Positions 2,123 through 57,593 of a stretch of 58,383 nt of DNA are shown piece after piece (the first letter of the stretch is position 1; each line of letters begins with the position of its first letter). The notes beneath the pieces are model-generated. The model saw only the letters and a program-made list of their open reading frames with translations. It did not search any database and was not told the DNA's origin. Position numbers and translations under genes: made by a program. The stretch covers positions 1-58,383 of IMG/VR virus record IMGVR_UViG_3300025018_000173, one strand, 5' to 3'. The stretch is from a virus. Taxonomy: Duplodnaviria > Caudoviricetes.

Positions 2123-2502
2123 CAGTCGCTCACTTCCACGTCAGAGTTGAACAGGCGCGTGGGGCTGCCGCCGACCGGAGCGGTGGTGCCGATGAACACG
2201 ATCTCGCAGTACGCAACGACGTTCCACTGCGGGAACAACTGGGTCTGTGCAGCCGTCGCGGAGAAGTTCACTGTGATCGGAACCTCGTCCAGCAGCGGCA
2301 CCGGGTTGACCACCGGCGTGGCGGTCAGGGTCAGATAGACCGTCGCGTTGTCGTCTTGCGTTTCACGGAACACGAGCCTCGCCTCGTAGTCGCTGGGGGT
2401 CTCGGCAACCTCTACGAAGCTGCTCGACAGTCCGACGTCCATGGTGAACACGTCGCCGCGGATCAGGCAGAAATCGTAGCGATCTGTGCACGTGTTGGCC
2501 AT
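2122..2502 (-). CDS. Small virion protein upstream of the fibre (BppU-N-like beta domain possible)
   Basis: 126 aa, beta-rich, translationally coupled to the fibre gene. Confidence 0.5.
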   Translation of the reverse strand: MANTCTDRYDFCLIRGDVFTMDVGLSSSFVEVAETPSDYEARLVFRETQDDNATVYLTLTATPVVNPVPLLDEVPITVNFSATAAQTQLFPQWNVVAYCEIVFIGTTAPVGGSPTRLFNSDVEVSD

Positions 2503-2509
2503 GAACGTG

Positions 2510-3169: not shown

Positions 3170-3170
3170 G

Positions 3171-3518
3171 TCAGAACCCCAAGCGCGGTGCGCGCCCCTC
3201 TTGGATGGACAGCTTGATCTCGCGGTCGGAGATCTTGAGGTCCTGCGCCGACAGGTCCTGCGGGTCCTGCGGGCGCGCGTTGTCGATTGGGGACGGATCG
3301 TCCAGCGTCCCGAGGTTCTTCACGTCTTGCGGGTGGTAGGTGCCGAAACCGGGCGTGATGTCCGCGAACTCGCGGCTCGTAGGACCTTGGCGGCGATCTT
3401 CGACGTAGTCTTCGGCGTAACGCACCATGCCGCTGGCGCTGTCCGTGCGCCAGCCTTTGCCCTTCCGGGCCCGAACTTTCGACGGGCGGCAGGCGCCGCT
3501 GAGAACTCGACCGGTCAT
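3171..3518 (-). CDS. Hypothetical phage protein
   Basis: 115 aa, tightly packed between two adaptor-like genes. Confidence 0.55.
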   Translation of the reverse strand: MTGRVLSGACRPSKVRARKGKGWRTDSASGMVRYAEDYVEDRRQGPTSREFADITPGFGTYHPQDVKNLGTLDDPSPIDNARPQDPQDLSAQDLKISDREIKLSIQEGRAPRLGF

Positions 3519-13305: not shown

Positions 13306-14232
13306 TCAGTCGTAGAGGGTTCGGCGGACCCGGTCCGTGCGGTCGAGTGCTGCGACGAGGTCGTCCCGGTCGGGGGACGGGGCGAACTCGAGGCGGTCGA
13401 TCGCTTCCGTGATCTCAAGGTTCTCGAGGTCGATGTCCTCGCCGCTGAACAGTGCGTTCAAGCTGTCGTAGCCGAAGAAGGCGCCCTCCGGCGACAGGAA
13501 CTGCGCGAGGTATTCCTGCTTGAACCGCAGTTCGCCGAGCGTGATCAGTTCCGCAGCCAAGAAGTCCGCGCCGATGCGCGGACACTGGTGGTGCGTGACC
13601 TGCCGGTGCCAGAACGCTCCTGAAGACCGGCCCTCGACCGCTTCGTAGAAGAAGCCCGCCGGCCCGTTGGGCGACGAGATCATTTGCAGCGCCCCACCGG
13701 TTGCCGCCAGCGACGGAGTGATAACGGCCAGCAGTTCTTCGGCTGCGAAAGCAGCTTCGTCGAGGATGACGAGGTTGGGCGAGAAGCCCCGGCCTGCGTC
13801 GGGATTTTGACAGGGGATGGCAACCGCAGTGGCGCCGTTCGGTAGCGTGATCGACAGCTTGTTCGCTTCGAGCAGGTCACGTTTATCCCAGTGGTGGAGC
13901 ACGGAATTGCGGATCTTCTCGATGAAGTATGCTGCCTGCCGCAGCGATTTGGAAGCGATCAATACCAACACGCCGGGGTTGTAGGTCATGAACCACGCCG
14001 CGAAGCCCGCTGTCACCGTGCTCTTGCCGGACTGCCGGCATGCCGCGATCGCGATGCGCGAGGTCTCCATGGACGCTTCGATATACTCGAGTTGCCACGG
14101 GTCCAGCTTGAAGCCGTTGGTGGTCTCGATGTATTGGACAGCCCCCATGGGTTTCGGGGCGCGCGTCGTGACCGCCGCGCGATTGAGGTTCTCGACTACC
14201 CGATCAACATGGAACTTGAACCTGTTGAACAT
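13306..14232 (-). CDS. Terminase large subunit, N-terminal ATPase domain
   Basis: LDPWQ adenine motif, Walker A CRQSGKST, Walker B VILDEAAF, ISSPNG coupling motif, FKQEYLAQF. Confidence 0.9.
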   Translation of the reverse strand: MFNRFKFHVDRVVENLNRAAVTTRAPKPMGAVQYIETTNGFKLDPWQLEYIEASMETSRIAIAACRQSGKSTVTAGFAAWFMTYNPGVLVLIASKSLRQAAYFIEKIRNSVLHHWDKRDLLEANKLSITLPNGATAVAIPCQNPDAGRGFSPNLVILDEAAFAAEELLAVITPSLAATGGALQMISSPNGPAGFFYEAVEGRSSGAFWHRQVTHHQCPRIGADFLAAELITLGELRFKQEYLAQFLSPEGAFFGYDSLNALFSGEDIDLENLEITEAIDRLEFAPSPDRDDLVAALDRTDRVRRTLYD

Positions 14233-20200: not shown

Positions 20201-23200
20201 CCCGCTCGTACAGGATGCGATCCGCGCCCCGCAATTCATCGACCGGAACGACCAGCTTCTTCTCGTTCTTCGTGTTGTTCGGATCGCGGACCGTCACCGT
20301 GCGCGCACGGATCAGTTCAGCGCGCAGGATGTCGCGGAAGCCGAGGCCGGACAGGTCCGCCCCCATCTCGTAGCCCTGATCCTTGACCAGATCGGCCAGC
20401 GCGGCGCCCATGGTGTCCTGCATGCCGATGACGACCTTCTCGCCCGCCCGGACCCGCGCAATGGCGTCCTCGGCGATGGCGCGGCTCTTCATGGCGAACG
20501 TCGCGAGTTCCGTGACGCGCCCCATCTGGGTCGCGTAGTTCGCGCTGCTGACCTTGTATTCGACCTTCGTCTTGCCGTTCTTGGTCGTGACCTTCGTCCA
20601 GCCGTTCTGGTCCGCGAACGCCTTGCCGTACTCGGTGCGCAGCGGCTCGAGGGCGCGACTGATCCCGAATAGCTGCGTGTGCGCGAGCCCCAGCGTGGTT
20701 ACGGCATCCTCTTCGACCGGCACGGTCATCGCCGCGAAGTCCACGCCGGCGAACGACCGGCCGCGGCGGATATACTGCCCGGCCCGCGCGAAGATGCCTG
20801 TCACGATCTGCTGCAACGGCACGCCGCCGGACGCGATGGTGTTGATCAACTGGTGCACGTCGGCGATGGCCTCGCGCATGGCCGTGCGCGGCGCATAGAT
20901 GGCCATGCCCGCGGGCTTCTTGGCGTAGGTGGCCGACGAGAACATGACGCCCTTGGTCTTGTTCACGAGGTCGCGGAAGTAGTTCGCCCGGCCCGGCCCG
21001 ATCGCATCGGTGTCGGGCGTGTCGGGCATCGGCGCGTATTTGGCGTCGCCGGCGGCAAGATGGCTTTCGTCCATGATCAGGAACGTGTTGCCCGCCGCGG
21101 TCAGCGCGCGCACGGCGTCGGCCCGCGGATAGCGGTCTGCGCCGAGCGGCTCGTTGGGATCGCTGCTGGCTTCGCCGAGGTCGTTCAGGTTGTCATACGT
21201 CGTGAAGACCGCGTTGTAGCCATCCGGCAGCCGCCCGGTCCGCTCGATCGTGCCCGGCGTGTTGGTCGGCTGGCCTTTCAGGTGCTTGCCGAACGCCTTG
21301 GTGTAGGCAGCAGGCGTGAGGCTCTGCATCTTTTCGCTGACGAACGGCTCGCCGGTCTCCGGGTCCTTCAATTCGACCGGCAGCTTCAACCCCTGCTGCG
21401 TGAGCAGCGGCGTGATGTTGGCCAGTTCGCCGATGTCGTTCAGATCGCGCAGCATATCCGTGCTAAGCGTGTTGTCCTTCGACACGAAAATCGGGATCAT
21501 GTTGTTGATCCGGGCATAGCGGATCATGCCGGCGACGACGCGGCCCTTGCCGATGCCCGTGTTGTGGTGGATGAGACCCTCGGCCGCGTAGTTGTAGTGG
21601 CCGGGCACTTTCATGTCGAAAAACTCGGCTTCACCCAGCTTTTCGATTGAAACGATCGTATCCCACCCAGTATAGTCACCGAATGAACGAGGATGAGAAA
21701 AAGCTGGTTCGGGGCTGCAATCGCGCCCGCGTCCGCTCGCTTGACCAAGCAGAACTGCGTCGGCTTCTGGAAGGTCAACAACTGACCCTGCAAGAGATTG
21801 CGGATCGTCTTGGCGTGTCGCTCGCGACGGTTGTGCGCCGCAACCAAAAATGGGGCTTGCGGTCGGTTCGAGGCCACGGCTCTCCGGGCGCCAAGAACCA
21901 CTTTTGGCGCGGCGGGTCGAAGATTGTGAAAGGCTACCGGTATCTGTGGCGCCCAGATCACCCACACGCGACAAGGGGCGGTTACGTGCTAGAGCATCGC
22001 TTGGTGATGGAAGCGCATCTCGGGCGGTATCTCGAGCCGACAGAGGTCGTGCATCACGCGGATACCGACCGCCTGAACAACGATCTGTTGAACCTGCACC
22101 TGTTTGCGTCGAACGCTGAGCATCTTCGCTACGAACTGACGGGCGTGACCCCGAACTATTCGCCGGAGGGTCGCCAGCGGATGCAAGAAAACGCCCGGCG
22201 TGTAAACGCGAAACGGGCTGCCACCCGTCAGGGGTCAAAAACCGATGCCCCGCCGTCGCCTCGACCACCCGGCCTTCCGCGGTGGTGATGCGGTAGAGGG
22301 TCTCCACGCCGATCTTGAAGGGCGCCGTGGCCTGCGCCGGCTGCAAGCCCGCGTCCGTCAGCGCCAAGACCGTAATCGGTTTGCCTGCGGCAGCCAGATC
22401 CTCGATGGGCGTGTGCGTGTCGGCGACCGGGTCGTAGATGCGCGTGTGCCCTGCGACGCACTGGTCGCCGAGGATCAGTGCGTTCCCGCCGCTCTCGTAG
22501 TTGTGGATCGACATAGCGAGCGCGTCGATCTGCTCTTTCGAGAAGGGACCGGGGCGCCCGTCGCGCGCCATGATGCGATCGGGCGCGTAGCCCAGCCGGT
22601 CCGCGACGTACAGGTCCAGATCCCCGACCTCGAGTTCGAGGTCTTCCAGCGCGGCGGAGATCGGCTCCTGTAGGTTCGCCTGCACGATGGTCTCTTGCGT
22701 GGGCGGGTATGGGGTCTTCGACCGCGGCTCGTACGGCACCTCGAACGTGGCGCTGCCATCCGGGTTCACACGGTCACTGCCTGCGGGCGGGCCGTACGTC
22801 TCGTCGTAGACCTTCAGCCGGCCATCGCGCATGTCCTTGAACGCTTGGTGCAGGAAGCCGCTCATCTGCGCGATGTCGGACACCGGCATGCGCGCGACGT
22901 CGGTCAGGTAGTCCACGAGGTCCTGCACGGCCCGGTTCCAGTCGGGGAACGGGCGGGTCAACTGATCCTTGACCGCGGCGCCCTGCGTCGTGCCTTCCAT
23001 GGTGCGCAGGAAGGTTTTGAACGCCTTGGCGCGGGACTGGTACTTCTTGTGCGTGACCTGCTGCTGGGTCACGCCGTGCGGCGTGCTGGCCAGTCGGAAC
23101 GCGGGGTCTGCGGCGAACTCCTTGATGAACGCCTGTGCGGCTTTCAGCGCGTTGTCCGACGAAGTCGGGAACGACGGGTCTTCGGCGTCTTCCATGCCGA

Positions 23201-26200
23201 AGCCGGGCGAAACCTCGCGGTCGCCGGCTTCTGTCAGCCCATCAGGACCGGCGCCGTCGTTCCTTCCGCTGCCGCCGTCTGCGCGCGCTCGATCCGCTTG
23301 CGGACCATATCCTCCGCCAGCTTCCATTCCGGGGCTTCCATCCCCGCTTCCGTCCTGATCTTCAGCACCCGACGTGCGCGGCGCAAGAAGTTCTGTTGTG
23401 TTTCCAAGGGGGCGTAGGGCGGTGGTGGGTCCACTAAATCCACTGTCTTTCATCCTTTTGACGTAGCGTTTCAGGATCGGGTCCATCACGTCCCGCAGCC
23501 AAGGCGGAACCACCGCGTTGTCAGCGTAGTAGATGTAGCCCAGTTCGTCGAGCGCCCGGCCCCGAAGGAGTTCAGACACGCGGTAGATTTCAGACCGCTG
23601 TTGCAGATTTGGCTGCCCAAGCGGAGAGCCCTGCGCGCGGAAGTACGCGGATTTCATCTCGACGATGCGATCGGCGAAGAACTCCCTGTTCTGGTTCGCC
23701 GTGCCGATCATCGTGCGCCAGTCATTGCGGCTCATGGCGCCGTCGCCCTCGAACGCGGCGCGGCGCACATAGACCATGGAGACGTCGGTGTGCGGGTGTG
23801 CCCACAAGGAGCGGGCACCCACCAGCAGGTCCGGGTCGGAGAAACCCGGCACGGACGGCAGCGTGTCTTGCGCATACAACGGATGGTTGTGGTGCGTGAC
23901 CAGATCGGCGTCGGTCGATAGGGCTTTCTGCACGGCAGCGGGGATCGGTGTGCTGTCGCTTTCACCGCTCGTCTCCCAGCCTTCGACCGTTCCGTCGGCC
24001 TGCCGCACGGCCACTGCATGCTCGTGCTGGATGCCACCCGCGTCGGACAGCCCACTCATGATGCCCGCGTAGATCGTATACTCGCGCGCTTCCGCGGGGG
24101 TGAACTCCGTCTTGCGCTTCAGCAGGTCGAGGCGGACCTGCATCTCTTCGCGCGTCAGATCGGGCAGCGCCACGCCGATTGGCACGAGCGCGTCGCCCTG
24201 CGGCCCGGCGGTCGTGGGCACAACCTCGCCGTCATCGACCTTCGCGGTGCGCGACCACTGCCCTGTCGGCCGCGTCGAGGCGCTCTCCTGCATCTGTTTC
24301 GCCTTGTTGGCGATGATGCGGACGATCTCTTCGCGCGTGGGCACGGCCGGGACTTGCGGGCCCTGCACTTCGGGCTCCGCCACGGGCTCCGCCACGGGCT
24401 CCGCCACGGGCTCCGCCACGGGCTCCGCCACGGGCTCCGCCACGGGCTCCGCCACGGGCTCAGGCGCGGGCTCAGGCGCGGGCTCAGGCTCCGGTGCGGG
24501 CTCCGGTGCGGGCTCCGGCAGCGCACGATCGCCACTCGTGACCGCGTTGATGTAGCCTGCGATGGTGTCGGCCATCTCGCCCAGCTTCGCGTCCATCTGG
24601 GCTTCGGTCAGATCGGCGTTTGCGGGCAGGTTCTCGACGGCGTCGAGGATCGCGTCGATCATGCCGTCGGCGTTGCCCTGCTCGATGAACTCGCGAAACT
24701 GCGGGTTGAAGCCCACGATCGCGTCGAGAGCCGCATACCTCGCGGCCCGCTTCTCTGCGTCGCTCATTCCTTCCACGCCGGCCCGGCTGCTGCCGAGGAC
24801 CGGGTCGGTGAACAGGTCGTTGAAGTTGCCCATCGCCTCTTCAGGCGTTGCGGGCTGCGGGACCTCGCCGGGGGTCTCGCCCCGCGGCTCGACGCCGGGC
24901 GCCGCCGGCTCCGGGCCGCGCGGCGTCGTTTCGGGCGGCTCGGCCTGCTGATCGGTTGGCGCTGCGCGCTTGCGGCGCCGCTCCTTGATGCGATCGCGGA
25001 CCTGCTGGCCCGTCACCCCGCCGGTGCCCTCCGGCTCGCCCTCTGGCCCCGGCGCAGGCGCCGGGGTCGGGGCGGGCTCCGGTGCGGCCTCGGGCTGGGT
25101 GACGGGCGCCGGGGTCGGCTTCGGCGCAGCGTCCTCTTCGTCCTTGCGCTTTTTCTCGTCGGCCTTGCGTTTGCGCTCGTCCGCAGCCTTCTGCTCGTCG
25201 GCCCGCCGCTTCTTGTCTTCGGCAGCCTTCTGCTCGTCGGCCTTGCGCTTCTCTTCCGCCGCACGCTTCTTCTCGTCGGCAGCTTTCTGCTTGTCTTCGG
25301 CCTTGCGCTTCTTCTCGGCTGCCCGGTCTCGCTCTTCCTGCGCGGCGCGATCGCGCGCCTCCTTGTCGGCAGCTTCGCGCTGTTCGGACGTCATGTCGCG
25401 GTCCGGGTCGTACAGGGGAGACCCCTCGGGGTAGCGACCCTCGTCGTCCACCATGTAGCGCGGCTCGCCGTTGCCATCGAGCACAACAGGTGCGCCGTCC
25501 GGGCCCTCAAACATGGGCTTGCCGTCGGATGCGCGGCGCTGCTCGCCCGTGACGGGGTCCATGAGCGGCGTCGGTGCGTAATCGTCGGGGACCGGCATGC
25601 GCGGCTCGCCCGCGGGAACCGGGCCGAAGTCGGTCGTCTCATCGTAGCCCGGCGCTTCGCCGCCCTTGTCGTCGTCCGTGAACTCGACGTTGGGCACGAC
25701 GGGGCCAAGACCACCGTCGGGCACCATCGGGATGTTGGGGCCGATGATGCTCGGGTCCGGCTCGGTGTAGTCGCCGATGCCCATGTCGCGGGCTTTCTGC
25801 TCGGCGTCCTGCACCACCTGCGCGCCCTCGGGCGTGTCGGCCACGCCCTGCACGCTGGGGGCCACGAAGCGGACCTGCGAGGACGGCAGGCCCTCGGTCG
25901 CGCGGATGTCGTCGATGGCGTCCGTGTAGCCGCGGACGCGCTCCTGCCCTTGGTTGATGTCGCGCAGCGCGCGGCGCTCGGCTGCCGTGTCGTTCGCGGC
26001 CTTGGCCGCGTCCCGCTCGGCCGTGGCCTTGCGCACGTCCGCGACAGCGGCGGCGCGCTTCTGCTCGAGGTCTTGGATCGCCTGCGGCGCACCGCCTTCG
26101 AGACCCGACTGCCGGACCTCTTCGATTTCCTGTCGCACCGGCTCGCTGACGCGCGGGCGATCCGGCGTGCTCTCGATCGGCCGACCGAACGCGGCTGCGG

Positions 26201-27476
26201 CACCCTCCATGAGCCCGGCCTGCTGGGTGCCCTTGATGCGCTTGTCCACCGCGGACAGGACGGCTTCCTCGTCCCGCAGCTTGCGGTCGATCGCCTTGGC
26301 TTCGTCGGTGTTGCCCGCTTCCTGCGCAGCCGTCAGGCGTTGGCGCAGATCCGCGATGTTGTTGCGGGCGGTGTCGCGGCGGTCCTGAAGGTCGATAACC
26401 CCCTGCGATGCGCTCTCTGCGCCCTTGAGGGTCTTGCTGCTTTCGCGCGCCGCGCCGATGTTCGCCCGCGCTGCGCCGCCGATGTCGGAGACCGCCGCCG
26501 GTGCGCCGCCAACACCCGAGATGCCGCCGCCGAGCACCGCGCCGCCGACGAAGTTTTCGAGGCTGTCCTCGAACCACGTGTCGCGCTGCTCGCGCTCGCT
26601 GTCCGTGCGCGGGTCGGTCAGGATGCGGTAGAACTCGGGGTTCGACTGCGCCATGCCCATGGCTTCTTGCAGCACCTCGGTGGTGCCTTCCATGATGGCG
26701 TCGCCGCCGACCTGCCCGGCGTACCGACCCGCGGCGCGCGTCGTCGATCGCGAAGCGGCCTGCGCCAAGGAGTTTGCCTGTGGCGCCGGGATCCCCAGCC
26801 GCCCGATCAGCACGCGACCGATCAGGGCGTCCAGCGATGCCTGCGCGACGCCGACGGCAGCCGCTTTGCCCAGATCGGGGTCCTGCCCCTGCTCGATCTG
26901 AGCCTCGAGGTTGCGTCCGGTGAAGAACGGCGTGCCCGTGGCGACACCCGCCGCAAGACCGACGCCGGGGCCACCAGCGATCGTGCCTGCTGCGGTGGCG
27001 CCGAGAACTGCGGCCATCTCCGGTGCCGACGCGCCCGCGAGGCTCGCCGCGTAAGACAGCGCGTCCTGTATCGTGCCGTTGACGTCCCCGATGTCCCGGT
27101 AAGACCCGACCCGCGGCGCGTTGCGCGGGTCTTGCATGCGCTCTTCGCCGGCATCCTGCCAGCCCTGCCCGTATCCGTCCTCTTCGGCGCCGAACACACC
27201 CGTGGCGACTTGCTCGCCCAGCGTGCCCAGCGCGCTCTGGCTCGCCGCGACGCCGCTGCGCCAGCCGCGCGCAAGGTCTTCCCGCAGCCCCGCGGACGGG
27301 ATCATGCCGCCCAGTTGCTCGGCGTACGCCTGTATCTCCGCGTCGCTGTACCCAGCCTCGCGCGCCCGACGCATGAAGTCCGTGGCGTCCTTCATGGAAG
27401 TGAACCCCGGTCGCTGCTGCGCCGGGGCATCGCCGAGACCGGCCATCACGTTGCCGAAGTAGTTGGGCTGCGCCAT
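14232..27476 (-). CDS. Giant (4414 aa) polyvalent internal-virion / DarB-like protein with Strawberry-notch SF2 helicase, intein and LPD38-like C-terminus
   Basis: GDQ|TGIGKGR Walker A, FTTY, MDESH, FSSATY, GSTGVSLHAS and QLVGRIHRTGQ helicase motifs. Also HHNHP...FSDPD (JAB-like), HESWH (zincin-like) and FRFPKGFEIG (LPD38-like). Confidence 0.85.
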   Translation of the reverse strand: MAQPNYFGNVMAGLGDAPAQQRPGFTSMKDATDFMRRAREAGYSDAEIQAYAEQLGGMIPSAGLREDLARGWRSGVAASQSALGTLGEQVATGVFGAEEDGYGQGWQDAGEERMQDPRNAPRVGSYRDIGDVNGTIQDALSYAASLAGASAPEMAAVLGATAAGTIAGGPGVGLAAGVATGTPFFTGRNLEAQIEQGQDPDLGKAAAVGVAQASLDALIGRVLIGRLGIPAPQANSLAQAASRSTTRAAGRYAGQVGGDAIMEGTTEVLQEAMGMAQSNPEFYRILTDPRTDSEREQRDTWFEDSLENFVGGAVLGGGISGVGGAPAAVSDIGGAARANIGAARESSKTLKGAESASQGVIDLQDRRDTARNNIADLRQRLTAAQEAGNTDEAKAIDRKLRDEEAVLSAVDKRIKGTQQAGLMEGAAAAFGRPIESTPDRPRVSEPVRQEIEEVRQSGLEGGAPQAIQDLEQKRAAAVADVRKATAERDAAKAANDTAAERRALRDINQGQERVRGYTDAIDDIRATEGLPSSQVRFVAPSVQGVADTPEGAQVVQDAEQKARDMGIGDYTEPDPSIIGPNIPMVPDGGLGPVVPNVEFTDDDKGGEAPGYDETTDFGPVPAGEPRMPVPDDYAPTPLMDPVTGEQRRASDGKPMFEGPDGAPVVLDGNGEPRYMVDDEGRYPEGSPLYDPDRDMTSEQREAADKEARDRAAQEERDRAAEKKRKAEDKQKAADEKKRAAEEKRKADEQKAAEDKKRRADEQKAADERKRKADEKKRKDEEDAAPKPTPAPVTQPEAAPEPAPTPAPAPGPEGEPEGTGGVTGQQVRDRIKERRRKRAAPTDQQAEPPETTPRGPEPAAPGVEPRGETPGEVPQPATPEEAMGNFNDLFTDPVLGSSRAGVEGMSDAEKRAARYAALDAIVGFNPQFREFIEQGNADGMIDAILDAVENLPANADLTEAQMDAKLGEMADTIAGYINAVTSGDRALPEPAPEPAPEPEPAPEPAPEPVAEPVAEPVAEPVAEPVAEPVAEPVAEPEVQGPQVPAVPTREEIVRIIANKAKQMQESASTRPTGQWSRTAKVDDGEVVPTTAGPQGDALVPIGVALPDLTREEMQVRLDLLKRKTEFTPAEAREYTIYAGIMSGLSDAGGIQHEHAVAVRQADGTVEGWETSGESDSTPIPAAVQKALSTDADLVTHHNHPLYAQDTLPSVPGFSDPDLLVGARSLWAHPHTDVSMVYVRRAAFEGDGAMSRNDWRTMIGTANQNREFFADRIVEMKSAYFRAQGSPLGQPNLQQRSEIYRVSELLRGRALDELGYIYYADNAVVPPWLRDVMDPILKRYVKRMKDSGFSGPTTALRPLGNTTELLAPRTSGAEDQDGSGDGSPGMEAGGGYGPQADRARADGGSGRNDGAGPDGLTEAGDREVSPGFGMEDAEDPSFPTSSDNALKAAQAFIKEFAADPAFRLASTPHGVTQQQVTHKKYQSRAKAFKTFLRTMEGTTQGAAVKDQLTRPFPDWNRAVQDLVDYLTDVARMPVSDIAQMSGFLHQAFKDMRDGRLKVYDETYGPPAGSDRVNPDGSATFEVPYEPRSKTPYPPTQETIVQANLQEPISAALEDLELEVGDLDLYVADRLGYAPDRIMARDGRPGPFSKEQIDALAMSIHNYESGGNALILGDQCVAGHTRIYDPVADTHTPIEDLAAAGKPITVLALTDAGLQPAQATAPFKIGVETLYRITTAEGRVVEATAGHRFLTPDGWQPVSRLHAGRFLASAGDPPANSSGSRPSVRSEDAQRSTQTGAGSTDRCSGGRYPRDARPLSARDTARDALPSPSDALARNRPLSRVGDLGATDTGSLSQSSTRRAKSGSWRPESRGLEPTASPIFGCGAQPSRATRQDDPQSLAGSVVDLPEADAVLLGQASGRGRDCSPEPAFSHPRSFGDYTGWDTIVSIEKLGEAEFFDMKVPGHYNYAAEGLIHHNTGIGKGRVVAGMIRYARINNMIPIFVSKDNTLSTDMLRDLNDIGELANITPLLTQQGLKLPVELKDPETGEPFVSEKMQSLTPAAYTKAFGKHLKGQPTNTPGTIERTGRLPDGYNAVFTTYDNLNDLGEASSDPNEPLGADRYPRADAVRALTAAGNTFLIMDESHLAAGDAKYAPMPDTPDTDAIGPGRANYFRDLVNKTKGVMFSSATYAKKPAGMAIYAPRTAMREAIADVHQLINTIASGGVPLQQIVTGIFARAGQYIRRGRSFAGVDFAAMTVPVEEDAVTTLGLAHTQLFGISRALEPLRTEYGKAFADQNGWTKVTTKNGKTKVEYKVSSANYATQMGRVTELATFAMKSRAIAEDAIARVRAGEKVVIGMQDTMGAALADLVKDQGYEMGADLSGLGFRDILRAELIRARTVTVRDPNNTKNEKKLVVPVDELRGADRILYERANEMINRLPIDVPFSPIDYIGAELTKAGIRYDEMTGRSLMIDPDGKLATRKRTATTNRENMDAFNGGDLDVLFLNQSGSTGVSLHASAAFKDQKPRTMIIAQPMADIVEFMQLVGRIHRTGQVALPAYRLAQTNSPAETRITARLMKKLRSLNANTTADDNSAMNLDAPDLLNRMGSQAAAGLLMEREDLRKALGFGEMTDEQMERAASDEAFVGRVLSRMAMLSFHSQQEFVRDLTEFYTSRKETLSDLGLDKTEIKHKNLQAVVVAEETLTAQRDGTTAFSAPSVYQKVTVVRDVKPKDPLQIQADILEMLTDGEITDRYELPRQGMQHKTRLLDDTEKAVRDAREAALDRERELGEQATAAMAKISEATDNVRKLTGDMKASDIRERVEASAKIADTVKKAEARILEHSKKLKAAEKKKDAAAIEKEKGLIERAEKERATAQKTLDKDGNFAQRYRDLVAVQRAAQREFDTYQYDMEESRKNRERNADFFSAFNNVVSQLGDGVGSPVRVSYKETKESDAEVYQAYIADIRLRTPNANPLTLNSYQVFLQTPMQRHPLRIPFTSIKQGLASFQPADNSAVMDEFYRSQTVSEERALVTGNILAGFSELGNRGEIITFNYKNSDDKVFGVLMPRSFDLEKFKEMQPLKLDKRAKIEAYLREMEWPITTAFNNKKYLSALNQDNSIDFRLIKAKGRGQFPTLQIWFATGKAKGANIAKIVLDHPEMKRMLADRGFELKQVGSGSKASQILETRNGSRSRDEIAPIIDFMVDNGLALELEGDVKKYIAGREIIPGTQRFSAAAAPSFKRGNRTLSATGVAEIVARMTGGKADVKTVDTLRAGGEGIRRSGALSTVEQEVSGSYDPVKSLVTVAMNGPHSAEVTAVHESWHFLRDKGLVTPKELDVLAAAGPKLRALAAKEMDPEAVQQLDQEELEAYALQQYARQPNNPAFRGPIGPVLAKIGEFFNRLANWFAGRGFLSVNDVFDAALAGDMAVRNPADDWRMSYQTASDPRFSAAMPIRTPDLPPDLDARMAALLNRKIIHDPMEARSFFGLFKTLLESIKTLNRDRMLRAGARIRQGAVDVYEGFRQLDLAAAGRTGDVAEGMDSIWKRAHLITTNTAPLMERALTKGQLVWDAARQDFLIDDTRDAFLDIVDPINEAGLMNHFTHWLVGQRAKQSVAMRSRAERKAKAGERDYLLNDADIKLIDDMFDALPADKQALFEKTKAGMIAYNRNFIVQMGEAGILRKTPRASGRSEVDRLLNSYDPDGTLQEELLYVPFSRFMDPDIVGHNDQGNLTVRRQRGMETRTNGMHRLHGSDLQVLDPMETLVKNMNAMLDKARRNATAREAIRLANSFPGGTRYVDQMPKTYDGMLDRKWLEANEDALEDLGIPMDTLLHGPGGTKASIQLLKDMVGDKAPKSSREVSIMVDGKQIFFEVHEPMLLESLRGMEPMQRGWFERLILEKPKLLLTKAVSADPVFMLNNLMRDTQQAWVLSPAKGAKPFIDTFKGFRETWAEGEDGYLDVGSASLYDYERLDRILAERFGKKPKGRLAPVTDLWHQWETFGRKTELGNRRTVYDRVLAETGDKDEALFQATFMANYASRGSNTVMRLAVSAIPYLNARVQGLDRLAMQAAGAGANKETMRRRLAVQMAVRGTMMAAVAVLLEAALAGDDEYEALEEWQKDAYFHFRGPNGELFRFPKGFEIGLLFGTVPARVYRRLAGEDGGDETRGAIARGLSSTLSLNPIPQAFKPIVEVGMNKSFFTGRPIESLGMQYLEPAQRYRETTSDALKSTQPAYGGLSRVLGAMMGMDTELSPVQAEALTRGYLGPMGGYVLAMADAVSSAVTGSTPQPNRVLGQNVPGLLRPVDEILSRAQRAVYAQSDPSNTAFTSEFYEMKRAADQAAATLRFAQRTGDQALYEEVIDENRRLLQAKTGLGQVSRRVIELRNLQKRVRASNLSAAAKNEQVRQIQRQINALTKSAVEAVAAE
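21647..21676 (+). promoter_or_regulatory. Sigma70-like promoter for the antisense HNH gene (leaderless)
   Basis: TTGAAA (21647-52), N18, TATAGT (21671-76). The ATG lies 7 nt after the -10 element. Confidence 0.6.
21683..22288 (+). CDS. HNH homing endonuclease encoded antisense within the intein
   Basis: HTH LTLQEIADRLGVSLATV, then GAKNHFWRGG and YVLEHRLVMEAHLGRYLEPTEVVHHADTDRLNNDLLNL (HNH_3 type). Confidence 0.9.
   Translation: MNEDEKKLVRGCNRARVRSLDQAELRRLLEGQQLTLQEIADRLGVSLATVVRRNQKWGLRSVRGHGSPGAKNHFWRGGSKIVKGYRYLWRPDHPHATRGGYVLEHRLVMEAHLGRYLEPTEVVHHADTDRLNNDLLNLHLFASNAEHLRYELTGVTPNYSPEGRQRMQENARRVNAKRAATRQGSKTDAPPSPRPPGLPRW
24371..24454. repeat. Perfect 12-bp tandem repeat x7 (VAEP linker of the giant protein)
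   Basis: CGGGCTCCGCCA seven times, flanked by degenerate APEP units. Confidence 0.95.
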
Positions 27477-52459: not shown

Positions 52460-53692
52460 ATGGGTCGGCCGCGGGAGATACTGCTCGACTACGAGACGCG
52501 CAGCACGTGCGATCTCACGAAGCGTGGCGCGCATGTCTATGCGGCCGACCCCTCGACGTCGATCCTGTGCTACGCATGGGTCGATGTGAACGAACGGTCC
52601 AAGCGCGGGGTCTACCGCGCTTGGCCCAACGCCAACGAGCCGCACCCGGACTGGGTCTATGACCCGCACGCCGCGATCTACGCATGGAACGCCGCCTTCG
52701 AGATCGCCATAACGAAGGACGTTGCGACCCGGCAGTTCGGCTGGCCAGACATATCCGCCGATCGGTTCGTGTGTCTCATGAAGATGGCCGCGCACGCCGG
52801 CATGCCGCTCGCCCTCGACCGCGCGACCGTGGCCGCGGGGCTCGAGGTCGCCAAGGACATGACCGGGCATCGCATGATGATGCGCTGGTGCAAGCCGCTG
52901 CCGCAGTCGAAGGCCGACAAGGAAGCCATCAAGGCGGGCAAGACCCCGCCGGTGCGCTGGGCCGACGACCCCGCAGAATATGACATCCTGTGCGCCTATG
53001 CCGAGGATGACGCACGTGCCGAACTTGGTATGCTGGACGCCCTGACCGGGTCCGCGTCGGACTTCGAGATGGAGATGATGCGGATTGACCAGCGCATCAA
53101 CGATCGTGGTTTCAGGATCGACACCGAGGCCGCCGAGGGTGCGGCCAAGATCGCGGCGGAAGAGGTGAAACGGCTGAACGCCGCAATGAGAAGGCTGACC
53201 AATGGCGAAATCACCACATGCAACCAGCGCGACCGCATCCTTGCTTTCGCAGCCCGACACGGTGTGGATCTGCCCAACCTGCGGTCGGGCGAGGTTAAGG
53301 ATACCTTGGCCGGGGAAGAGCACGACGGTGCCGAAGACGATCTTGCGCAAGTGGCGCTACCTCCTATTGTGCGTCAAGTTTTGGAACTCCGGGTTGAAGC
53401 AAACAAGGCTTCCGTCGCCAAGCTACGAGCAATGGTGCGCGGAGTTGGAACGGACGGGCGCTTTCGCGGCGGCTTCGCGTACGGTGGTGCAGCCAAGACC
53501 CTGCGGTGGGCAGGACGGCGAGTGCAACCGCACAACTTCTCCCGAGAGAACCCCCCCGCCGAGGTTCCAGAGGAAGTATGGTTTGACGCCCTCGCATCCG
53601 GCGACCGGGAATACTTCGCCAGCCTCTTGCCCGACGGGATGACGGTCATGGACGGCCTGAAAAGCAGTCTGCGCGGCATGATCATTCCGTGA
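52460..53692 (+). CDS. DNA polymerase family A, N-terminal chain (3'-5' exonuclease and thumb)
   Basis: LDYETRS, AWNAAFE, YAEDD, DQRINDRG, YGGAAKTLRWAGRRVQPHN. Stops at LRGMIIP, just before motif A. Confidence 0.9.
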   Translation: MGRPREILLDYETRSTCDLTKRGAHVYAADPSTSILCYAWVDVNERSKRGVYRAWPNANEPHPDWVYDPHAAIYAWNAAFEIAITKDVATRQFGWPDISADRFVCLMKMAAHAGMPLALDRATVAAGLEVAKDMTGHRMMMRWCKPLPQSKADKEAIKAGKTPPVRWADDPAEYDILCAYAEDDARAELGMLDALTGSASDFEMEMMRIDQRINDRGFRIDTEAAEGAAKIAAEEVKRLNAAMRRLTNGEITTCNQRDRILAFAARHGVDLPNLRSGEVKDTLAGEEHDGAEDDLAQVALPPIVRQVLELRVEANKASVAKLRAMVRGVGTDGRFRGGFAYGGAAKTLRWAGRRVQPHNFSRENPPAEVPEEVWFDALASGDREYFASLLPDGMTVMDGLKSSLRGMIIP

Positions 53693-53716
53693 TACCATAG
53701 ACCAAGGAGAGACCAG

Positions 53717-53992
53717 ATGAACGACCAGACCCTGACCGAAGACCTGCTCGCCGGATACCGCGCCGCCGCCCAGCAGGCGCTGGATGCAGGGCGGACCGCC
53801 ATCGCGGAGCGCAACGCCTTGCAGCGCGAGTGCGACCGGCTGGCGGCACAGGTCGAGGATCTGAAAGCCGAGACCCGAGACTTCAAGAGCCCTCCTCCGG
53901 TGTTCTGCGCCCGGTGCGGTGCGCCGCGCGACAACCATCCGTACCGCCACCCGTTTGTTCCCGCGCCCATCACACGCGGAGAGCCAAGATGA
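53717..53992 (+). CDS. Hypothetical protein (coiled coil with CxxC)
   Basis: AAGGAG RBS, 91 aa. Confidence 0.7.
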   Translation: MNDQTLTEDLLAGYRAAAQQALDAGRTAIAERNALQRECDRLAAQVEDLKAETRDFKSPPPVFCARCGAPRDNHPYRHPFVPAPITRGEPR

Positions 53993-54693
53993 TCCGCCTT
54001 GCCCCCGCCCTCGCCCTGCTGGCGCTAACCAGCGCCGCACACGCCGCCCCTGTGACCGTCTGGAACGGTCCCGGTCCTCGCGCCTGCAACAGCGCCTGCA
54101 CGGAGCCGTGGGCGCTGTCCGAGGCTGCGCGGGCCATGCCCGCCGACGTGCACGCCGCCATGGCCGCGGCCATTGAGGCCGGCCCAGCCGAGCGCACGCG
54201 CGTCATGCCGGGGCAGATCCTCGCCATGAACACATACGCGAGCGCCGAGGGTCGGCCGCTGGCCGAGGTGCGGCCGATCGTTGCCGATCTGGTCGCCCCG
54301 GAACCTGCGCAGGGGTGGTACGTCCGCGACGCCGCCGGCACGCGCTGGGGGTTCGTGCGGGTGGACGGCTGCGCCAACTGGCAGGTTACGGTAGGCACGC
54401 CGCCAGCGACGCCGGTGCAGACCTACGCGGGCCCGATGACGGTCTGGGGTCCGGGCTATCTGGGCCCGATCGGCTACGGCACACGGGGTGGCGGCGCGTC
54501 CAGCTACTTCAAGACCCACACGACAGTGAACAACTGGACCGACGACGGTCACGCAGAGCCGCCGAGGATTGTGCCGCTGCCGCAGGTGCCCGGTCAAACG
54601 CCGCCCCCGATCCCGCTGCCCGCCGCCGCGTGGCTGCTGGCATGCGGCGTCGCTGCGCTGATCGCAGCCAAACGGGGCTTGCGCCGCCAGTAA
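53989..54693 (+). CDS. Secreted protein with VPLPA-CTERM (exosortase) sorting signal
   Basis: Signal peptide MIRLAPALALLALTSAAHA and C-terminus PIPLPAAAWLLACGVAALIAAKRGLRRQ. Confidence 0.8.
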   Translation: MIRLAPALALLALTSAAHAAPVTVWNGPGPRACNSACTEPWALSEAARAMPADVHAAMAAAIEAGPAERTRVMPGQILAMNTYASAEGRPLAEVRPIVADLVAPEPAQGWYVRDAAGTRWGFVRVDGCANWQVTVGTPPATPVQTYAGPMTVWGPGYLGPIGYGTRGGGASSYFKTHTTVNNWTDDGHAEPPRIVPLPQVPGQTPPPIPLPAAAWLLACGVAALIAAKRGLRRQ

Positions 54694-54735
54694 AAACGCG
54701 GTAATACCTGCTAACGCGACCGAGAGGAACCCCCG

Positions 54736-55125
54736 ATGCCTGACGCCGACGCATGGCGGCGCTGCGACGTTCATAACTATTCCGTTGCCGATGAGTGGGG
54801 CGATCACAGCCACACGATCAGCGAGGTGCGCTGGACGCGGTACGAGTTCGTGCGCGCGACACCGAAAGGCGTCTGGCTTCGAGGTTTCCTGACTGGTGAG
54901 TTCTTCGTGCTCGGCACTTCGCTTCGACAGCGTGCGGTGCCCACGCGCCAGCTTGCCGTGCAGGACGCGATCGCGCGGAAGAGGCGCCACATCCTCGGGT
55001 GCGAGGCCCGGCTAGAACGCGCCTTGACCCACATGGAACAACTTAAAAGGGTAGAGCGACATGAACGTGAACGAGGCTCGCCAGATCGGCGAGAGCAAGC
55101 TGCGGGTATCCAAGCCCCTGTTTGA
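54736..55125 (+). CDS. Hypothetical protein
   Basis: GAGG RBS, VRATPKGVWL motif. Confidence 0.7.
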   Translation: MPDADAWRRCDVHNYSVADEWGDHSHTISEVRWTRYEFVRATPKGVWLRGFLTGEFFVLGTSLRQRAVPTRQLAVQDAIARKRRHILGCEARLERALTHMEQLKRVERHERERGSPDRREQAAGIQAPV

Positions 55126-55327
55126 GAAGAGCATGGAGGTCGCCAAGGCCATGGACGTCGAGGCCCGGCACATGGGCCCGATGACCCTCGCACTGGCGAT
55201 CATGGGCGTGTCCCGCGCCCACCAGTCCGAGGACCTGACCGCCGAACTGACCGACGCGCTGGCGCTGGTCTCGAAGGCCGAGAACGAGTGGCGCATGGAG
55301 CGCATGACTGAGAGGCTGCGGTCATGA
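55061..55327 (+). CDS. Hypothetical protein
   Basis: 88 aa, helical. Confidence 0.55.
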   Translation: MNVNEARQIGESKLRVSKPLFEKSMEVAKAMDVEARHMGPMTLALAIMGVSRAHQSEDLTAELTDALALVSKAENEWRMERMTERLRS

Positions 55328-55641
55328 TCGCGGGCTGCGGAAAAGCGCCGGCCGAAGACGAGCAGCGCGAACATGACAAGGCGTGCTGGGAGGTGGCCAA
55401 GGCCATGACCGGTGCGCTTCCCGTGGTCGCGCATGCACACAGCGCCTGCATGCCCGGCGCGGTGTCGGAGACCGTCGCCGACATGCGGGCTTTGTACCGC
55501 ATGTCCTTCTGCGAGAGCGACGCGCAGTACCATGCGTTCCTCAAGGAACTGATAGGCCGTGCTGGGGCGCTGTACGATGCGGCCCGCGCCGAGGTCGAGC
55601 GCACAGGAGACGATCCGCATGCTGGATCTACCCTGCACTGA
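55324..55641 (+). CDS. Hypothetical protein
   Basis: 105 aa, ATGA overlap. Confidence 0.55.
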   Translation: MIAGCGKAPAEDEQREHDKACWEVAKAMTGALPVVAHAHSACMPGAVSETVADMRALYRMSFCESDAQYHAFLKELIGRAGALYDAARAEVERTGDDPHAGSTLH

Positions 55642-57367
55642 GCCTCGGCTGGTCGTCGCGGACCTAGCCCAGATCGAGGCCCGCGCCTTGGTCTGGGCAG
55701 GCGGGCAGTGGGATGTGGTGGAAGCCTTCGAGCGGTACGACGCTGCGGTCGCGGCCGGCGAGCCGGAGGACGTGATCAAGAAGCTGGACATCTACACGGT
55801 GAACGGCGCCAAGATGAACATGGACCGGCAGGGCGGCAAGGTTGCCACCTTGTCCTGCTTTGGTGCGGACACGCAGGTTCTGGTGAAGAAGGGACTTGAT
55901 ACGTTTACGCTACCCATAGTAGAGGTTACGTCCGAGTATCAAGTGTGGGATGGCGTAGAATGGGTATCGACAGCGGGCGCGATTGCAAGAGGGCGCCGTT
56001 CGACGATTGTGATTGGTGGGGTGGCTGTGACGCCCGACCACGCTTTGCTGTGTGGCGAGACTTGGAAGCCGGCGTCGGAGGTCAGAACCTGCGCAAGCAC
56101 CCTAACCCGAGCGTTGGCGACCGGTTCGGCGAACTTACCGTCCGAGGTTTTGTCGTCGGTGTTCGCGGCGGGCTTCTCCGCGTCATCGTGCAGTGCTCGT
56201 GCGGCGCACCACGCCACGAAGCCGGCATCAGCAACCTCAGATCCGGGCGCAGCACCCGGTGCATGCGTTGCGCCGCGGTCGCTTCGCGTGACACCCGCAC
56301 CAGCAAAGAGAAGCGGTATCTGCGATACGCTGGCGTCTTGCCTGACGACAAGCATCGCCGCCGCCTGCTCAACCGCATCTCGGCTATTATGCAGCGGTGC
56401 CACAATCCTCGGAGCAAAAATTATGCCGGATACGGCGGGCGCGGCATCCTCGTACACGCGCCGTGGCGCGCTGCCGACGGCCGCGCTGACTTCCTGCGCT
56501 ACCTACTTACGCTCGACGGGTGGGACAACCCGCACCTCGAGTTGGACCGGAGAGACAACAACAGGGGGTACGAGCCGGGCAACCTTCGGTTTATCGAGCG
56601 CCGAAAGAACGCCAGAAACAAACGCACCGTCGCCAGTTTGCAGCGTGAAATCGACAGTCTACGATCTGACCTTGTGTGGGCCAAGGCAACGCTTCACCGT
56701 CTGGACATCCCTTGGGCCCCTGATAGCGCATAACTGCGGTTATCAGGCCGGGCGTTTCACGGTGTGCGTCTTCGCCAAGACCTACGGGCTGAACCTGACC
56801 GAAGAGCAGGGGCAGGCCATCGTGACCGCATGGCGCGAGGCGAACCCCATGGTCGTGCGGCTGTGGAAGGCCGAAGAGGACGCCGCCAAGGCCGCGATCG
56901 AAAACCCCGGTGTACCGCAGGACCGCGGCAAGCTGGGCGCGTACCTGTTCAACGGGCAGCATCTGCTGCGCAAGCTGCCGTCCGGCCGGTGCATCTGCTA
57001 TCGCAACGCGACGCTCGAGATGAAACAGACGCCGTGGGGCCAGCGGCGCAGGGTTGTGGGCTACGATGCCAACTACTTTGCCAAGAACTCGCGCACGTTC
57101 GTGCGGCTGAAAGCCTATGGCGGGCTGTTCGTCGAGAACCTGATCCAAGCCATGTGCCGCGACATCCTCGCGGTCGGCATTTACCGCGCCGAGCGCGCCG
57201 GGTTGCAGGTCATCTTGCACGTGCACGACGAGATCGGCGTGCGGTCTACGCAGCCCGCCGTGGACGGCGTGCTGCTGGTCCGGGCCATGACATCGCCGAT
57301 CCCGTGGTGCAGGGGGCTGCCCATTGCATCGTCGGTCGATGTGCTGACCCGGTATCGCAAGGCATAA
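55619..57367 (+). CDS. DNA polymerase family A, C-terminal chain (palm and fingers) with intein
   Basis: AGGAG RBS and ATG 55619. Motif A LVVADLAQIEAR, motif B RQGGKVATLS|CGY, ENLIQAMCRD, motif C HVHDEI. Confidence 0.9.
   Translation: MLDLPCTEPRLVVADLAQIEARALVWAGGQWDVVEAFERYDAAVAAGEPEDVIKKLDIYTVNGAKMNMDRQGGKVATLSCFGADTQVLVKKGLDTFTLPIVEVTSEYQVWDGVEWVSTAGAIARGRRSTIVIGGVAVTPDHALLCGETWKPASEVRTCASTLTRALATGSANLPSEVLSSVFAAGFSASSCSARAAHHATKPASATSDPGAAPGACVAPRSLRVTPAPAKRSGICDTLASCLTTSIAAACSTASRLLCSGATILGAKIMPDTAGAASSYTRRGALPTAALTSCATYLRSTGGTTRTSSWTGETTTGGTSRATFGLSSAERTPETNAPSPVCSVKSTVYDLTLCGPRQRFTVWTSLGPLIAHNCGYQAGRFTVCVFAKTYGLNLTEEQGQAIVTAWREANPMVVRLWKAEEDAAKAAIENPGVPQDRGKLGAYLFNGQHLLRKLPSGRCICYRNATLEMKQTPWGQRRRVVGYDANYFAKNSRTFVRLKAYGGLFVENLIQAMCRDILAVGIYRAERAGLQVILHVHDEIGVRSTQPAVDGVLLVRAMTSPIPWCRGLPIASSVDVLTRYRKA
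55856..56734 (+). mobile_element. Intein (293 aa) in polymerase motif B
   Basis: Starts CFGADTQVLV, block B VTPDHALL, block F VYDL, ends LIAHN followed by Cys. Confidence 0.95.
55945..56733 (+). CDS. HNH-type endonuclease in an alternative frame within the polymerase intein
   Basis: GDRFGELTV...QCSCG...NLRSGRSTRC and MQRCHNP...YGGRGI...LDRRDNNRGYEPGNLRF...NARNKR. True start uncertain. Confidence 0.85.
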   Translation: MGWRRMGIDSGRDCKRAPFDDCDWWGGCDARPRFAVWRDLEAGVGGQNLRKHPNPSVGDRFGELTVRGFVVGVRGGLLRVIVQCSCGAPRHEAGISNLRSGRSTRCMRCAAVASRDTRTSKEKRYLRYAGVLPDDKHRRRLLNRISAIMQRCHNPRSKNYAGYGGRGILVHAPWRAADGRADFLRYLLTLDGWDNPHLELDRRDNNRGYEPGNLRFIERRKNARNKRTVASLQREIDSLRSDLVWAKATLHRLDIPWAPDSA

Positions 57368-57377
57368 GCGCGGTGCG

Positions 57378-57593
57378 TCACCACGCCGGCACGGCCGGTG
57401 CAGCGGATGCGGGGAACACGCCGATGCTTTCGTTGGCCGCGTCGGCCTGCTCTTGTGTGAGGAAGCCGCGCTCGACCAGCACGGCGGTCACGGCGTTGCG
57501 GATGAAGGCGCTGCGCGGGTCGGGGATGGCATCGAACACGGGCTGCGGCAGTCGAACGCTGGTTACGGGGGTGCCCAAGGTGGTATCCTCCAT
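57378..57593 (-). CDS. Small ribbon-helix-helix-like regulator
   Basis: TSVRLPQPVFDAI...RSAFIRNAV. The only credible minus-strand gene in this arm. Ends in VPAW. Confidence 0.55.
   Translation of the reverse strand: MEDTTLGTPVTSVRLPQPVFDAIPDPRSAFIRNAVTAVLVERGFLTQEQADAANESIGVFPASAAPAVPAW

Follow-up and report, generated by a model that had tools for sequence, protein, structure and literature searches.

We show that the polymerase intein at positions 55856-56734 of IMG/VR record IMGVR_UViG_3300025018_000173 carries, on the same strand and in another reading frame, a second conserved open reading frame (ORF), and that the same layout is present in 84/84 phage and viral loci compared. The record, a metagenomic viral contig of the Caudoviricetes with an estimated completeness of 78%, was analysed over 58,383 nucleotides (nt), in the following called the window. 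A preliminary description of this DNA had reported an intein with an overprinted endonuclease, and this observation is confirmed. Our data suggest that the locus is probably a composite mobile element, in which a class-1 mini-intein in the O-helix of a phage family-A DNA polymerase is combined with a separately translated gene for an HNH-like endonuclease in a different frame.

The intein interrupts polymerase motif B (R..GK...L..GY.GG; O-helix) at the junction GKVATLS/CGY. The surrounding ORF, 55559-57367, is open over its whole length and the host frame continues through the intein. In this frame, called frame 0, the following features were assigned:

55856..56734, + strand: intein in the polymerase frame, 879 nt or 293 amino acids, with TGC (Cys1) at 55856, CAT AAC (His-Asn) at 56729-56734 and TGC (Cys+1) at 56735-56737
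55856..56089, + strand: N-terminal splicing lobe in frame 0, with block B (TPDH) at 56030-56041
56657..56734, + strand: C-terminal splicing lobe in frame 0 (VYDL ... IAHN), in the extein frame in 84/84 loci

The region between the lobes is rich in Ala, Ser and Thr; the intein length, the position in motif B and this unusual middle had all been named before and were all found. Cys1 and the terminal His-Asn, followed by Cys or Ser, are present in 84/84 loci, the intein length being 281-299 amino acids, and residues C1, T59 and H62 are invariant among 14 N lobes. A profile built from the N lobe matches solved inteins, i.e. NEQ068 with an E value of 5.4e-5 and the PI-MtuI/RecA mini-inteins with E values of 0.02-0.07. 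The catalytic residues, the homology to inteins and the in-frame insertion site, for which precise intein-less alleles exist in relatives, place 55856-56734 among the class 1 inteins. We infer that it splices, because Cys1, TPDH, His-Asn and Cys+1 are intact and stop codons are strictly absent from frame 0. A fractured gene encoding a split intein was considered and rejected, since frame 0 is unbroken across the intein in 84/84 loci.

The second reading frame lies between and partly across the two lobes. Its product was compared in alignment A1, comprising 22 members of the nested-protein family, resulting in the following assignments:

55945..56733, + strand: nested ORF in the +2 (-1) frame, 262 amino acids, open from stop to stop from 55900, with candidate starts GTG 55945 and ATG 55960 and the stop codon TAA at 56731-56733
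56107..56640, + strand: conserved core of the nested protein in the alternate frame (A1)
56194..56271, + strand: Cys-x-Cys ... Cys-x2-Cys cluster (C84, C86, C106, C109), the four Cys residues being invariant in 22/22 sequences
56431..56448, + strand: YGGRGI motif, with Y163, R166, G167 and I168 invariant and G164 and G165 nearly so, common to free-standing relatives
56542..56625, + strand: LDRRDN..GYEPGNLRF..R..N..N.R motif, the HNH-like segment, with D201, R202, N213, N222 and N225 invariant (A1)
56626..56706, + strand: C-terminal amphipathic helix of the nested protein, overlapping the C-terminal splicing lobe in the other frame

The alternate frame is open from 55900 to 56733 and frame 0 throughout, in agreement with the approximately 790 nt of double openness reported earlier. 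The bases of the core, 56107..56640, read in frame 0 as a linker rich in Thr, Ser and Ala. The GC content by codon position in the middle of the intein follows the alternate frame, with a GC content at third positions (GC3) of 0.77 and at second positions (GC2) of 0.52; the exteins have a GC3 of approximately 0.9 in frame 0. In the window the TAA stop codon is indeed formed by the terminal His-Asn codons, as had been described, but this is not a conserved design: only 28/84 loci end in this way, and the others end 7 to 61 nt before the intein end, mostly at -22 (20 loci) or -25 (22 loci), save two truncated ORFs.

A search for related loci with the single nested protein gave no relatives, and the alignment was needed to retrieve them. 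With it, 215 IMG/VR relatives were obtained, the best 80 of which were kept and combined with the window and three GenBank records to give the 84 phage and viral loci; all were placed by local tblastn with the N lobe, C lobe, C-extein and nested core of the window. By tblastn, the nested protein matches 557 of 50,697 phage records, and the best matches, in Pseudomonas phage MR14, Vibrio phage 97.13, Salmonella Jerseyviruses and EBPR siphovirus 2, all fall within genes annotated as polymerase. Cultured carriers include Jerseyviruses and the related Escherichia phage fEg-Eco19. In the three GenBank records the nested match is at +2 with respect to the annotated polymerase coding sequence and both frames are open. 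The nested core is at +2 relative to the N and C lobes in 84/84 loci and relative to the C-extein in all 80 loci with a C-extein match, frame 0 is free of stop codons in 84/84 loci, and the nested ORF is intact in 82/84. A scan of bacterial and archaeal genome contigs added 34 loci, giving 118 loci examined. Fourteen of these further contigs repeat the +2 layout with frame 0 open, and one more (L100), cut by the contig end, is at +2 on its C side. A core in the frame of the intein was found in 0/118 loci.

Some loci deviate individually. Two IMG/VR loci (L043, L072) have a nested ORF truncated by early stop codons and an open frame 0. One genome contig (L108) is degenerate, with six stop codons in frame 0 and the two lobes in different frames. 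In a scaffold of the Taishania pollutisoli assembly (L101) the nested protein is identical, in the tree alignment, to that of Salmonella phage vB_SenS-EnJE1 (L001); this Jerseyvirus-like locus in the assembly of a Bacteroidota isolate looks like contamination or carry-over.

A layout arising by two compensating indels from a canonical in-frame HNH intein, through errors of sequencing or assembly, might be suspected in a metagenomic contig of 78% estimated completeness. Such an artefact would have to reproduce the identical offset at both junctions in 84/84 independent loci, finished phage genomes among them, with frame 0 open in all of them, and we regard its probability as negligible. The preliminary description had named disruption of the alternate frame in close homologues as the finding that would speak against it, and had proposed a general class missed by annotation. 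Close homologues keep the frame intact (82/84) and under purifying selection, and the layout is found in more than 100 loci, including many deposited Salmonella phage genomes in which the gene is annotated as polymerase only.

Selection on the two frames was assessed in a nucleotide alignment of 70 distinct inteins, using 800 of 2415 pairs, from the ratio of nonsynonymous to synonymous differences per site (pN/pS). The ratio is 0.47 in frame 0 and 1.36 in the nested (HNH) frame for the N lobe, 1.15 in frame 0 and 0.41 in the nested frame for the core, and 0.39 in frame 0 and 1.36 in the nested frame for the C lobe; since pS is near saturation (0.7-0.8), these values are qualitative only. Purifying selection thus changes frame at approximately nt 225 and again at approximately nt 790 of the intein, acting on frame 0, then on the HNH frame and then on frame 0. 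True dual coding, in which two functional proteins are maintained over the same bases, was rejected because in each region selection acts on a single frame. The features expected of an overlapping endonuclease are all observed here: the splicing lobes share the frame of the exteins, the ORF between them is in another frame, and purifying selection acts on the frame of that ORF while the extein frame is relaxed.

Frame 0 is maintained in a different way. In synonymous permutations that preserve both the nested protein and its codon usage, frame 0 is stop-free in a median of 0.8% of permutations over the 70 distinct loci (3.6% for the window), yet it is open in 70/70, and it is therefore kept readable without being conserved as a protein. 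The frame-0 linker is rich in Thr, Ser and Ala throughout the family; no selection for low hydrophobicity of this linker was detected, the observed value being 0.280 compared to 0.266 in the shuffles, and no locus lies below its shuffle mean. The amino-acid distances of the splice lobes and of the HNH protein are correlated (r 0.66, a value reached in 0/999 Mantel permutations), as expected if lobes and nested protein are inherited as one unit.

These data also bear on whether the nested ORF is a decaying relic of an endonuclease domain that was once in frame and is no longer expressed, with both frames being open through GC-richness only. Long spurious ORFs are frequent at a GC content such as that of the window (65.7%), and 2/84 loci have a truncated nested ORF. 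The same bases give a pN/pS of 0.41 in the nested frame and of 1.15 in frame 0, however, the ORF is intact in the remaining 82 loci including those of Salmonella phages, and no locus has the core in frame, making a relic very improbable.

How the nested ORF would be translated can be judged from the distribution of stop and start codons. In the alternate frame stop codons are frequent in the first 104 nt of the intein, and none occurs from +107 on in 74/74 loci. The stretch +105..+240 is stop-free in 70/70 distinct loci, compared to 43% per locus expected from synonymous shuffling of the N lobe; translation therefore seems to start well upstream of the conserved core. An ATG, GTG or TTG is present at +77 in 72/74 loci and at +92 in 70/74 (ATG in 45), represented in the window by GTG 55945 and ATG 55960. 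The nested frame might alternatively be reached by programmed ribosomal frameshifting (-1 here), resulting in a fusion of N-extein, N lobe and HNH protein. The alternate frame being open for approximately 130 nt upstream of the core without conservation at the protein level would fit such a fusion, as would the weakness of the Shine-Dalgarno evidence for an internal start. The preliminary description had seen no clear slippery site, and across 74 loci no heptamer X XXY YYZ is conserved, no position in the intein's first 270 nt having one in more than 4/74, and homopolymer runs of at least six occur in two loci only. In addition, a related clade with the nested ORF in the +1 frame would require a +1 shift instead, and the fusion would waste polymerase translation. 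We consider frameshifting quite improbable and favour internal initiation, a preference derived from these comparisons of loci.

The nested protein consists of the Cys4 cluster, a basic helical segment (HRRRLLNR), the YGGRGI motif, the segment L-D-R-x-D-N ... GY-x-PGN ... N-x-x-N-x-R and the C-terminal amphipathic helix. The Cys4 cluster is probably a zinc ribbon; it shows a weak match to the zinc site of Cox5B (E 0.1), the sole similarity found in profile searches of the PDB with the nested family. The C-terminal helix shows weak matches to bZIP and coiled-coil families of Pfam (E 0.0004 to 0.6, at most 6/22 members per family) and may mediate dimerisation. The protein matches the PHROG families phrog_374 (E 2e-33), phrog_2081 (1.3e-19) and phrog_3377 (8.2e-19), all named HNH endonuclease, and phrog_8790, named restriction endonuclease (E 2.5e-18). 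The designation HNH derives from PHROG family names only, a family name being an annotation and no functional test, and is unverified. The motif consensus is (L/M/I)-D-R-x-D/N ... Y-x-P-x-N ... N-x-x-N with invariant Asn residues, and its Arg occupies the presumed position of the general-base His of HNH_3-type motifs. Because of this Arg and the lack of a match to Pfam HNH models we call the protein HNH-like and not a proven HNH nuclease; the Cys-rich N-domain and the YGGRGI and DRRDN motifs of the preliminary description are all present, and its identification as an HNH domain is unconfirmed. The family is large: a cut-off of E 0.001 gives 104,988 representatives, and one of 1e-10 gives 49,574. 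Some longer relatives (P0121, P0122, P0123, P0130, P0154 and P0167) have three to five tandem modules of G-x-R-x-G-x-L-T-V plus Cys4 before a single core, and in P0167 the N-terminus of an SNF2-like helicase continues in frame into the nested-protein sequence.

Besides the near-saturation of pS, several observations weigh against a composite element with a separately translated endonuclease. Searched against Pfam at E up to 0.1, the 293-amino-acid product of frame 0 gives no Hint or intein match. That the nested ORF is translated is inferred from sequence comparison: the start codons at +77 and +92 are weak evidence because they follow for the most part from Trp codons that are conserved in frame 0, the excess of Shine-Dalgarno-like matches over synonymous shuffles is not clear (at +92, 27/56 loci compared to approximately 21 expected), and no sigma-70-like promoter was found in 55300-57500. 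Concerning the nuclease, the HNH models of Pfam match 0/22 family members at E up to 1, NCBIfam gives no match for the protein of the window, a profile search finds no solved HNH structure at E up to 10, and Arg stands at the expected His position in 115/115 loci and in 187/187 stored proteins having the motif. Finally, intein-less alleles were seen in Jerseyviruses and not in the lineage of the window itself.

The Arg at this position and the missing Pfam HNH match are also the main arguments for an expressed nested protein that is no nuclease, i.e. a DNA-binding or targeting factor composed of a zinc ribbon and an AP2-like/HNH-like fold, its catalytic His being lost, which would make use of another nuclease or have a regulatory role. 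Some relatives are annotated as 'AP2 domain protein' or 'DNA-binding domain protein', and a similar reservation on the nested ORF of Pacc40 is voiced in the paper on ShiLan (PMC11855218). The PHROG families matched with E values of 2e-33 to 2.5e-18 bear the names of HNH or restriction endonucleases, the motif retains its invariant Asp and Asn, and a very large, patchy, free-standing family together with presence/absence polymorphism of the intein fits a homing nuclease, for which reasons we regard a purely non-nuclease function as unlikely. We thus prefer the composite element with an HNH-like endonuclease.

A sister clade offers a comparison for the choice of frame. In 15 loci, mostly from Bacillota (L109-L112, L114-L124), a homologous nested protein is encoded in the +1 frame at the same insertion site (KGK.A.L./C ... 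HN/CGYGG), in inteins of 309-313 amino acids, and in some of these loci the nested ORF extends 22-31 nt into the C-extein. The likely start of the nested protein in this clade, 'MKD', arises from frame-0 codons for Y-E-G. A partial locus (L125) is at +1 on its C side, two loci (L113, L126) have no intein, and L121 has an additional free-standing paralogue downstream. An unrooted maximum-likelihood tree of 29 chosen rows places each of the two groups on one side of a branch, with support of 98/99 for +2 and 100/99 for +1, and both groups jointly are split from seven free-standing or APSE rows at 94/88. This topology would fit a single capture with a later change of frame, the alternative being that close relatives were captured twice. 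Since the frame differs between the sister clades, separate translation appears to be what is conserved, not a particular frame. Free-standing relatives with the same order of domains occur in phages of Clostridium, Vibrio, Staphylococcus and Bacillus, where they are annotated as HNH endonuclease or hypothetical protein; they have no Pfam matches.

Another case of nesting is found in Bacteriophage APSE-2 (L086; P45 DNA polymerase, locus 217-3198), at a different intein site, YGGKS/C ... IVHN/CENICQ. The APSE-2 intein has a filler middle in frame 0 and, in the +1 frame, an HNH-like ORF, broadly of the same family, whose product has a C-terminal helix-turn-helix (HTH). In the tree this ORF groups with a free-standing paralogue (100/99), suggesting an independent capture.

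Evidence for mobility comes from the Jerseyviruses (SETP3/Ent1 type), whose polymerase intein belongs to the same intein family and occupies the same site, with a nested ORF of 38-39% tblastn identity to that of the window. A megablast search with a Jerseyvirus intein and its 500-nt flanks matches 393 phage records, 151 of which cover at least 80% of the query. Among an evenly spaced sample of 40 megablast rows, 14 match the two flanks only, with 83-90% identity, and Jerseyvirus phage CTH7 has the exact intein-less junction IRQIGKA/CELGLGY. For APSE phages, a published comparison describes the polymerase intein as differentially lost (10.1101/2020.03.17.996009).

In the mechanism that we consider most likely, ribosomes translating the polymerase would read through the intein in frame 0, producing the N lobe, a Thr/Ser/Ala-rich linker of approximately 180 amino acids without conserved sequence and the C lobe, and the intein would splice out, restoring the polymerase. 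Internal initiation at a low level, in the window at GTG 55945 or ATG 55960 and hence within the coding region of the N lobe, would yield a free protein of 25-29 kDa composed of the putative zinc ribbon, the YGGRGI/DR..N..N core and the C-terminal helix. In a co-infection this protein may cleave or nick polymerase alleles that lack the intein, at or close to the site coding for GKVATLS/CGY, and repair would then copy the intein together with its passenger gene into the cut allele, as in homing.

A more far-reaching interpretation is that the out-of-frame state is the selected condition of an old and widespread partnership of two genes, in which a mini-intein serves as landing pad and the endonuclease gene has remained separately translated through at least one frame change. 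The family of approximately 50,000 members at E up to 1e-10, for which no Pfam model was found and which has Arg in place of the expected catalytic His, would in that case form a major class of phage homing proteins that has gone unrecognised, whose active site is unusual or whose role is one of targeting without catalysis. We put this forward tentatively, as a possibility that we do not expect to hold in full.

Inteins with an endonuclease out of frame or antisense form a class that is already published, and the architecture described here is of this known, rare kind. A 2025 survey of actinophages (bioRxiv 10.1101/2025.01.02.630785) describes inteins with an endonuclease in another frame (EndoVII-like) or antisense (LAGLIDADG, VSR-like), HNH being reported there in frame only, and proposes that free-standing endonuclease genes invade inteins. 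The EndoVII-like case shares with the polymerase intein a splicing domain in the extein frame, an ORF of the same strand but a different frame that occupies the usual position of the endonuclease, and an in-frame read-through without recognisable fold. It differs in the nuclease, which here belongs to the YGGRGI/DR..N..N HNH-like family, and in the hosts, since our loci come from phages of Gram-negative bacteria, of Bacillota and of uncultured hosts; two sister clades using two alternative frames are, compared to the actinophage case, a feature of the polymerase intein.

In the cyanobacterial dnaX intein a LAGLIDADG endonuclease is encoded in a +2 ORF (Phillips, DeSimone and Gogarten, bioRxiv 10.64898/2026.09.14.751524, crediting Gorbalenya 1998, 'Non-canonical inteins'). 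Common to both systems are the +2 overlapping ORF, a low dN/dS (nonsynonymous to synonymous substitution rates) in the endonuclease frame and a raised one in the extein frame across the overlap, a sporadic distribution, intein-free alleles and a proposed secondary invasion of a mini-intein; the dnaX case concerns an enzyme of the LAGLIDADG type within a cellular gene for DNA polymerase III, whereas here an HNH-like protein resides in a phage family-A polymerase. Fractured genes, i.e. split inteins parted by a free-standing endonuclease gene (Dassa et al. 2009, PMC2677866), likewise tie splicing parts to an independently translated endonuclease gene related to free-standing ones; they consist of two ORFs and splice in trans, unlike the continuous frame 0 of our 84 loci.

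Hidden HNH insertions in phage DNA methylases were described for ShiLan and Pacc40 (Arsenault et al., Genes 2025, PMC11855218), and these, too, carry an HNH-type ORF out of frame in an insertion without stop codons in the host frame. These insertions have no detectable splicing domain, in contrast to the clear lobes of the polymerase intein. The Pacc40 ORF resembles the nested family in its annotation, with AP2-domain and HNH names and no conserved-domain match, a likeness by annotation alone. The ShiLan ORF stops at a TAA contained in the insertion's four final bases (TAAC), as at 56729-56734 of the window. TAAC in inteins arises from the His-Asn codons (xxT AAC), and in view of this coincidence a terminal Asn in the host frame of ShiLan may merit a second look.

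We found no published report of this nuclease family, of the polymerase site, of its presence in Jerseyviruses and APSE phages or of sister clades in two frames. Our literature searches gave no out-of-frame HNH-type ORF for inteins of family-A polymerases or of Jerseyviruses, with the limit that supplementary tables of the 2025 preprint may list related cases, and a literature search for the YGGRGI motif returned papers on venom peptides only. A 1997 study cited in the 2025 preprint reportedly described an HNH-type nuclease associated with a Hint splicing domain, the nuclease being part of the intein polypeptide; the nested core is in frame in none of our 118 loci. In the Jerseyvirus records examined the annotation is limited to 'DNA polymerase', 'intein-containing DNA polymerase precursor' or an intein 'encoding splicing domains', and one record labels the whole polymerase gene 'endonuclease'. 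The nested ORF is annotated in none of the six records examined for the polymerase intein or the APSE-2 intein.

In the window the host polymerase gene is itself split into two parts:

52460..53692, + strand: N-terminal half of the split family-A DNA polymerase (exonuclease and N-terminal part, ending in ...GMIIP and a stop codon), matching phrog_17 DNA polymerase with E 2.2e-33 at profile positions 671-1002
55559..57367, + strand: C-terminal polymerase half including the intein, from the ORF list, with the listed start GTG 55559 and an ATG at 55619 just before motif A

Residues 393-601 of the second ORF match the DNA polymerase families phrog_10285, 7766 and 17 of PHROG with E values of 1e-30 to 4e-34, and the ORF also matches phage polymerases by tblastn. 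Pfam and NCBIfam give no match for the polymerase halves, the intein or the nested ORF. The gap of approximately 1.9 kb (53693-55618) splits the polymerase just before motif A (...GMIIP and stop / MLDLPCTEPRLVVADL...) and contains five small ORFs, only one of which has a match in a PHROG scan, to families without known function. In most relatives the polymerase gene is contiguous, the N part being in frame with the intein and 100-500 nt upstream of it in 42/48 related loci with an N-part match.

The window contains a further nested arrangement. An ORF of 4414 amino acids on the minus strand (14232-27476) has an intein (CVAGHTRIY ... LIHHN/T), inside of which a 213-amino-acid ORF lies on the opposite, plus strand (21647-22288). 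It comprises an HTH and a Pfam HNH_3 domain (E 3e-9), matches PHROG HNH families with E values down to 1.3e-22, and by these features is an antisense nested endonuclease. The preliminary description had placed a different HNH family at 21683 and had seen in both cases an independent use of the same strategy. An hhalign comparison with the nested protein of the polymerase intein detects no relation (probability 0.2), so the two families do differ and both are nested out of frame; the layout is not the same, the ORF here being antisense to its intein.

As a summary, the interest of the polymerase intein lies not in the concept itself but in its breadth, in the frame change between sister clades and in the unexplained Arg of the active site. 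Annotation has overlooked a protein-coding gene in many metagenomic viral contigs and in well over a hundred phage genomes on deposit, 151 out of 393 matching records covering 80% or more of the intein-containing query; among these genomes are those of many Salmonella Jerseyviruses that are studied for biocontrol. For gene finding this means that inteins with a filler-like middle warrant a search in all six frames. The nested-intein family constitutes a large, naturally replicated data set on two frames sharing the same DNA, one being under purifying selection and the other avoiding stop codons. The nested proteins, a very large family that is HNH by PHROG name only and lacks the expected His, are of interest for biochemistry. 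Our findings support the view that the splicing element came first and that the endonuclease gene invaded it later, and they link inteins to the logic of endonuclease genes encoded in introns.

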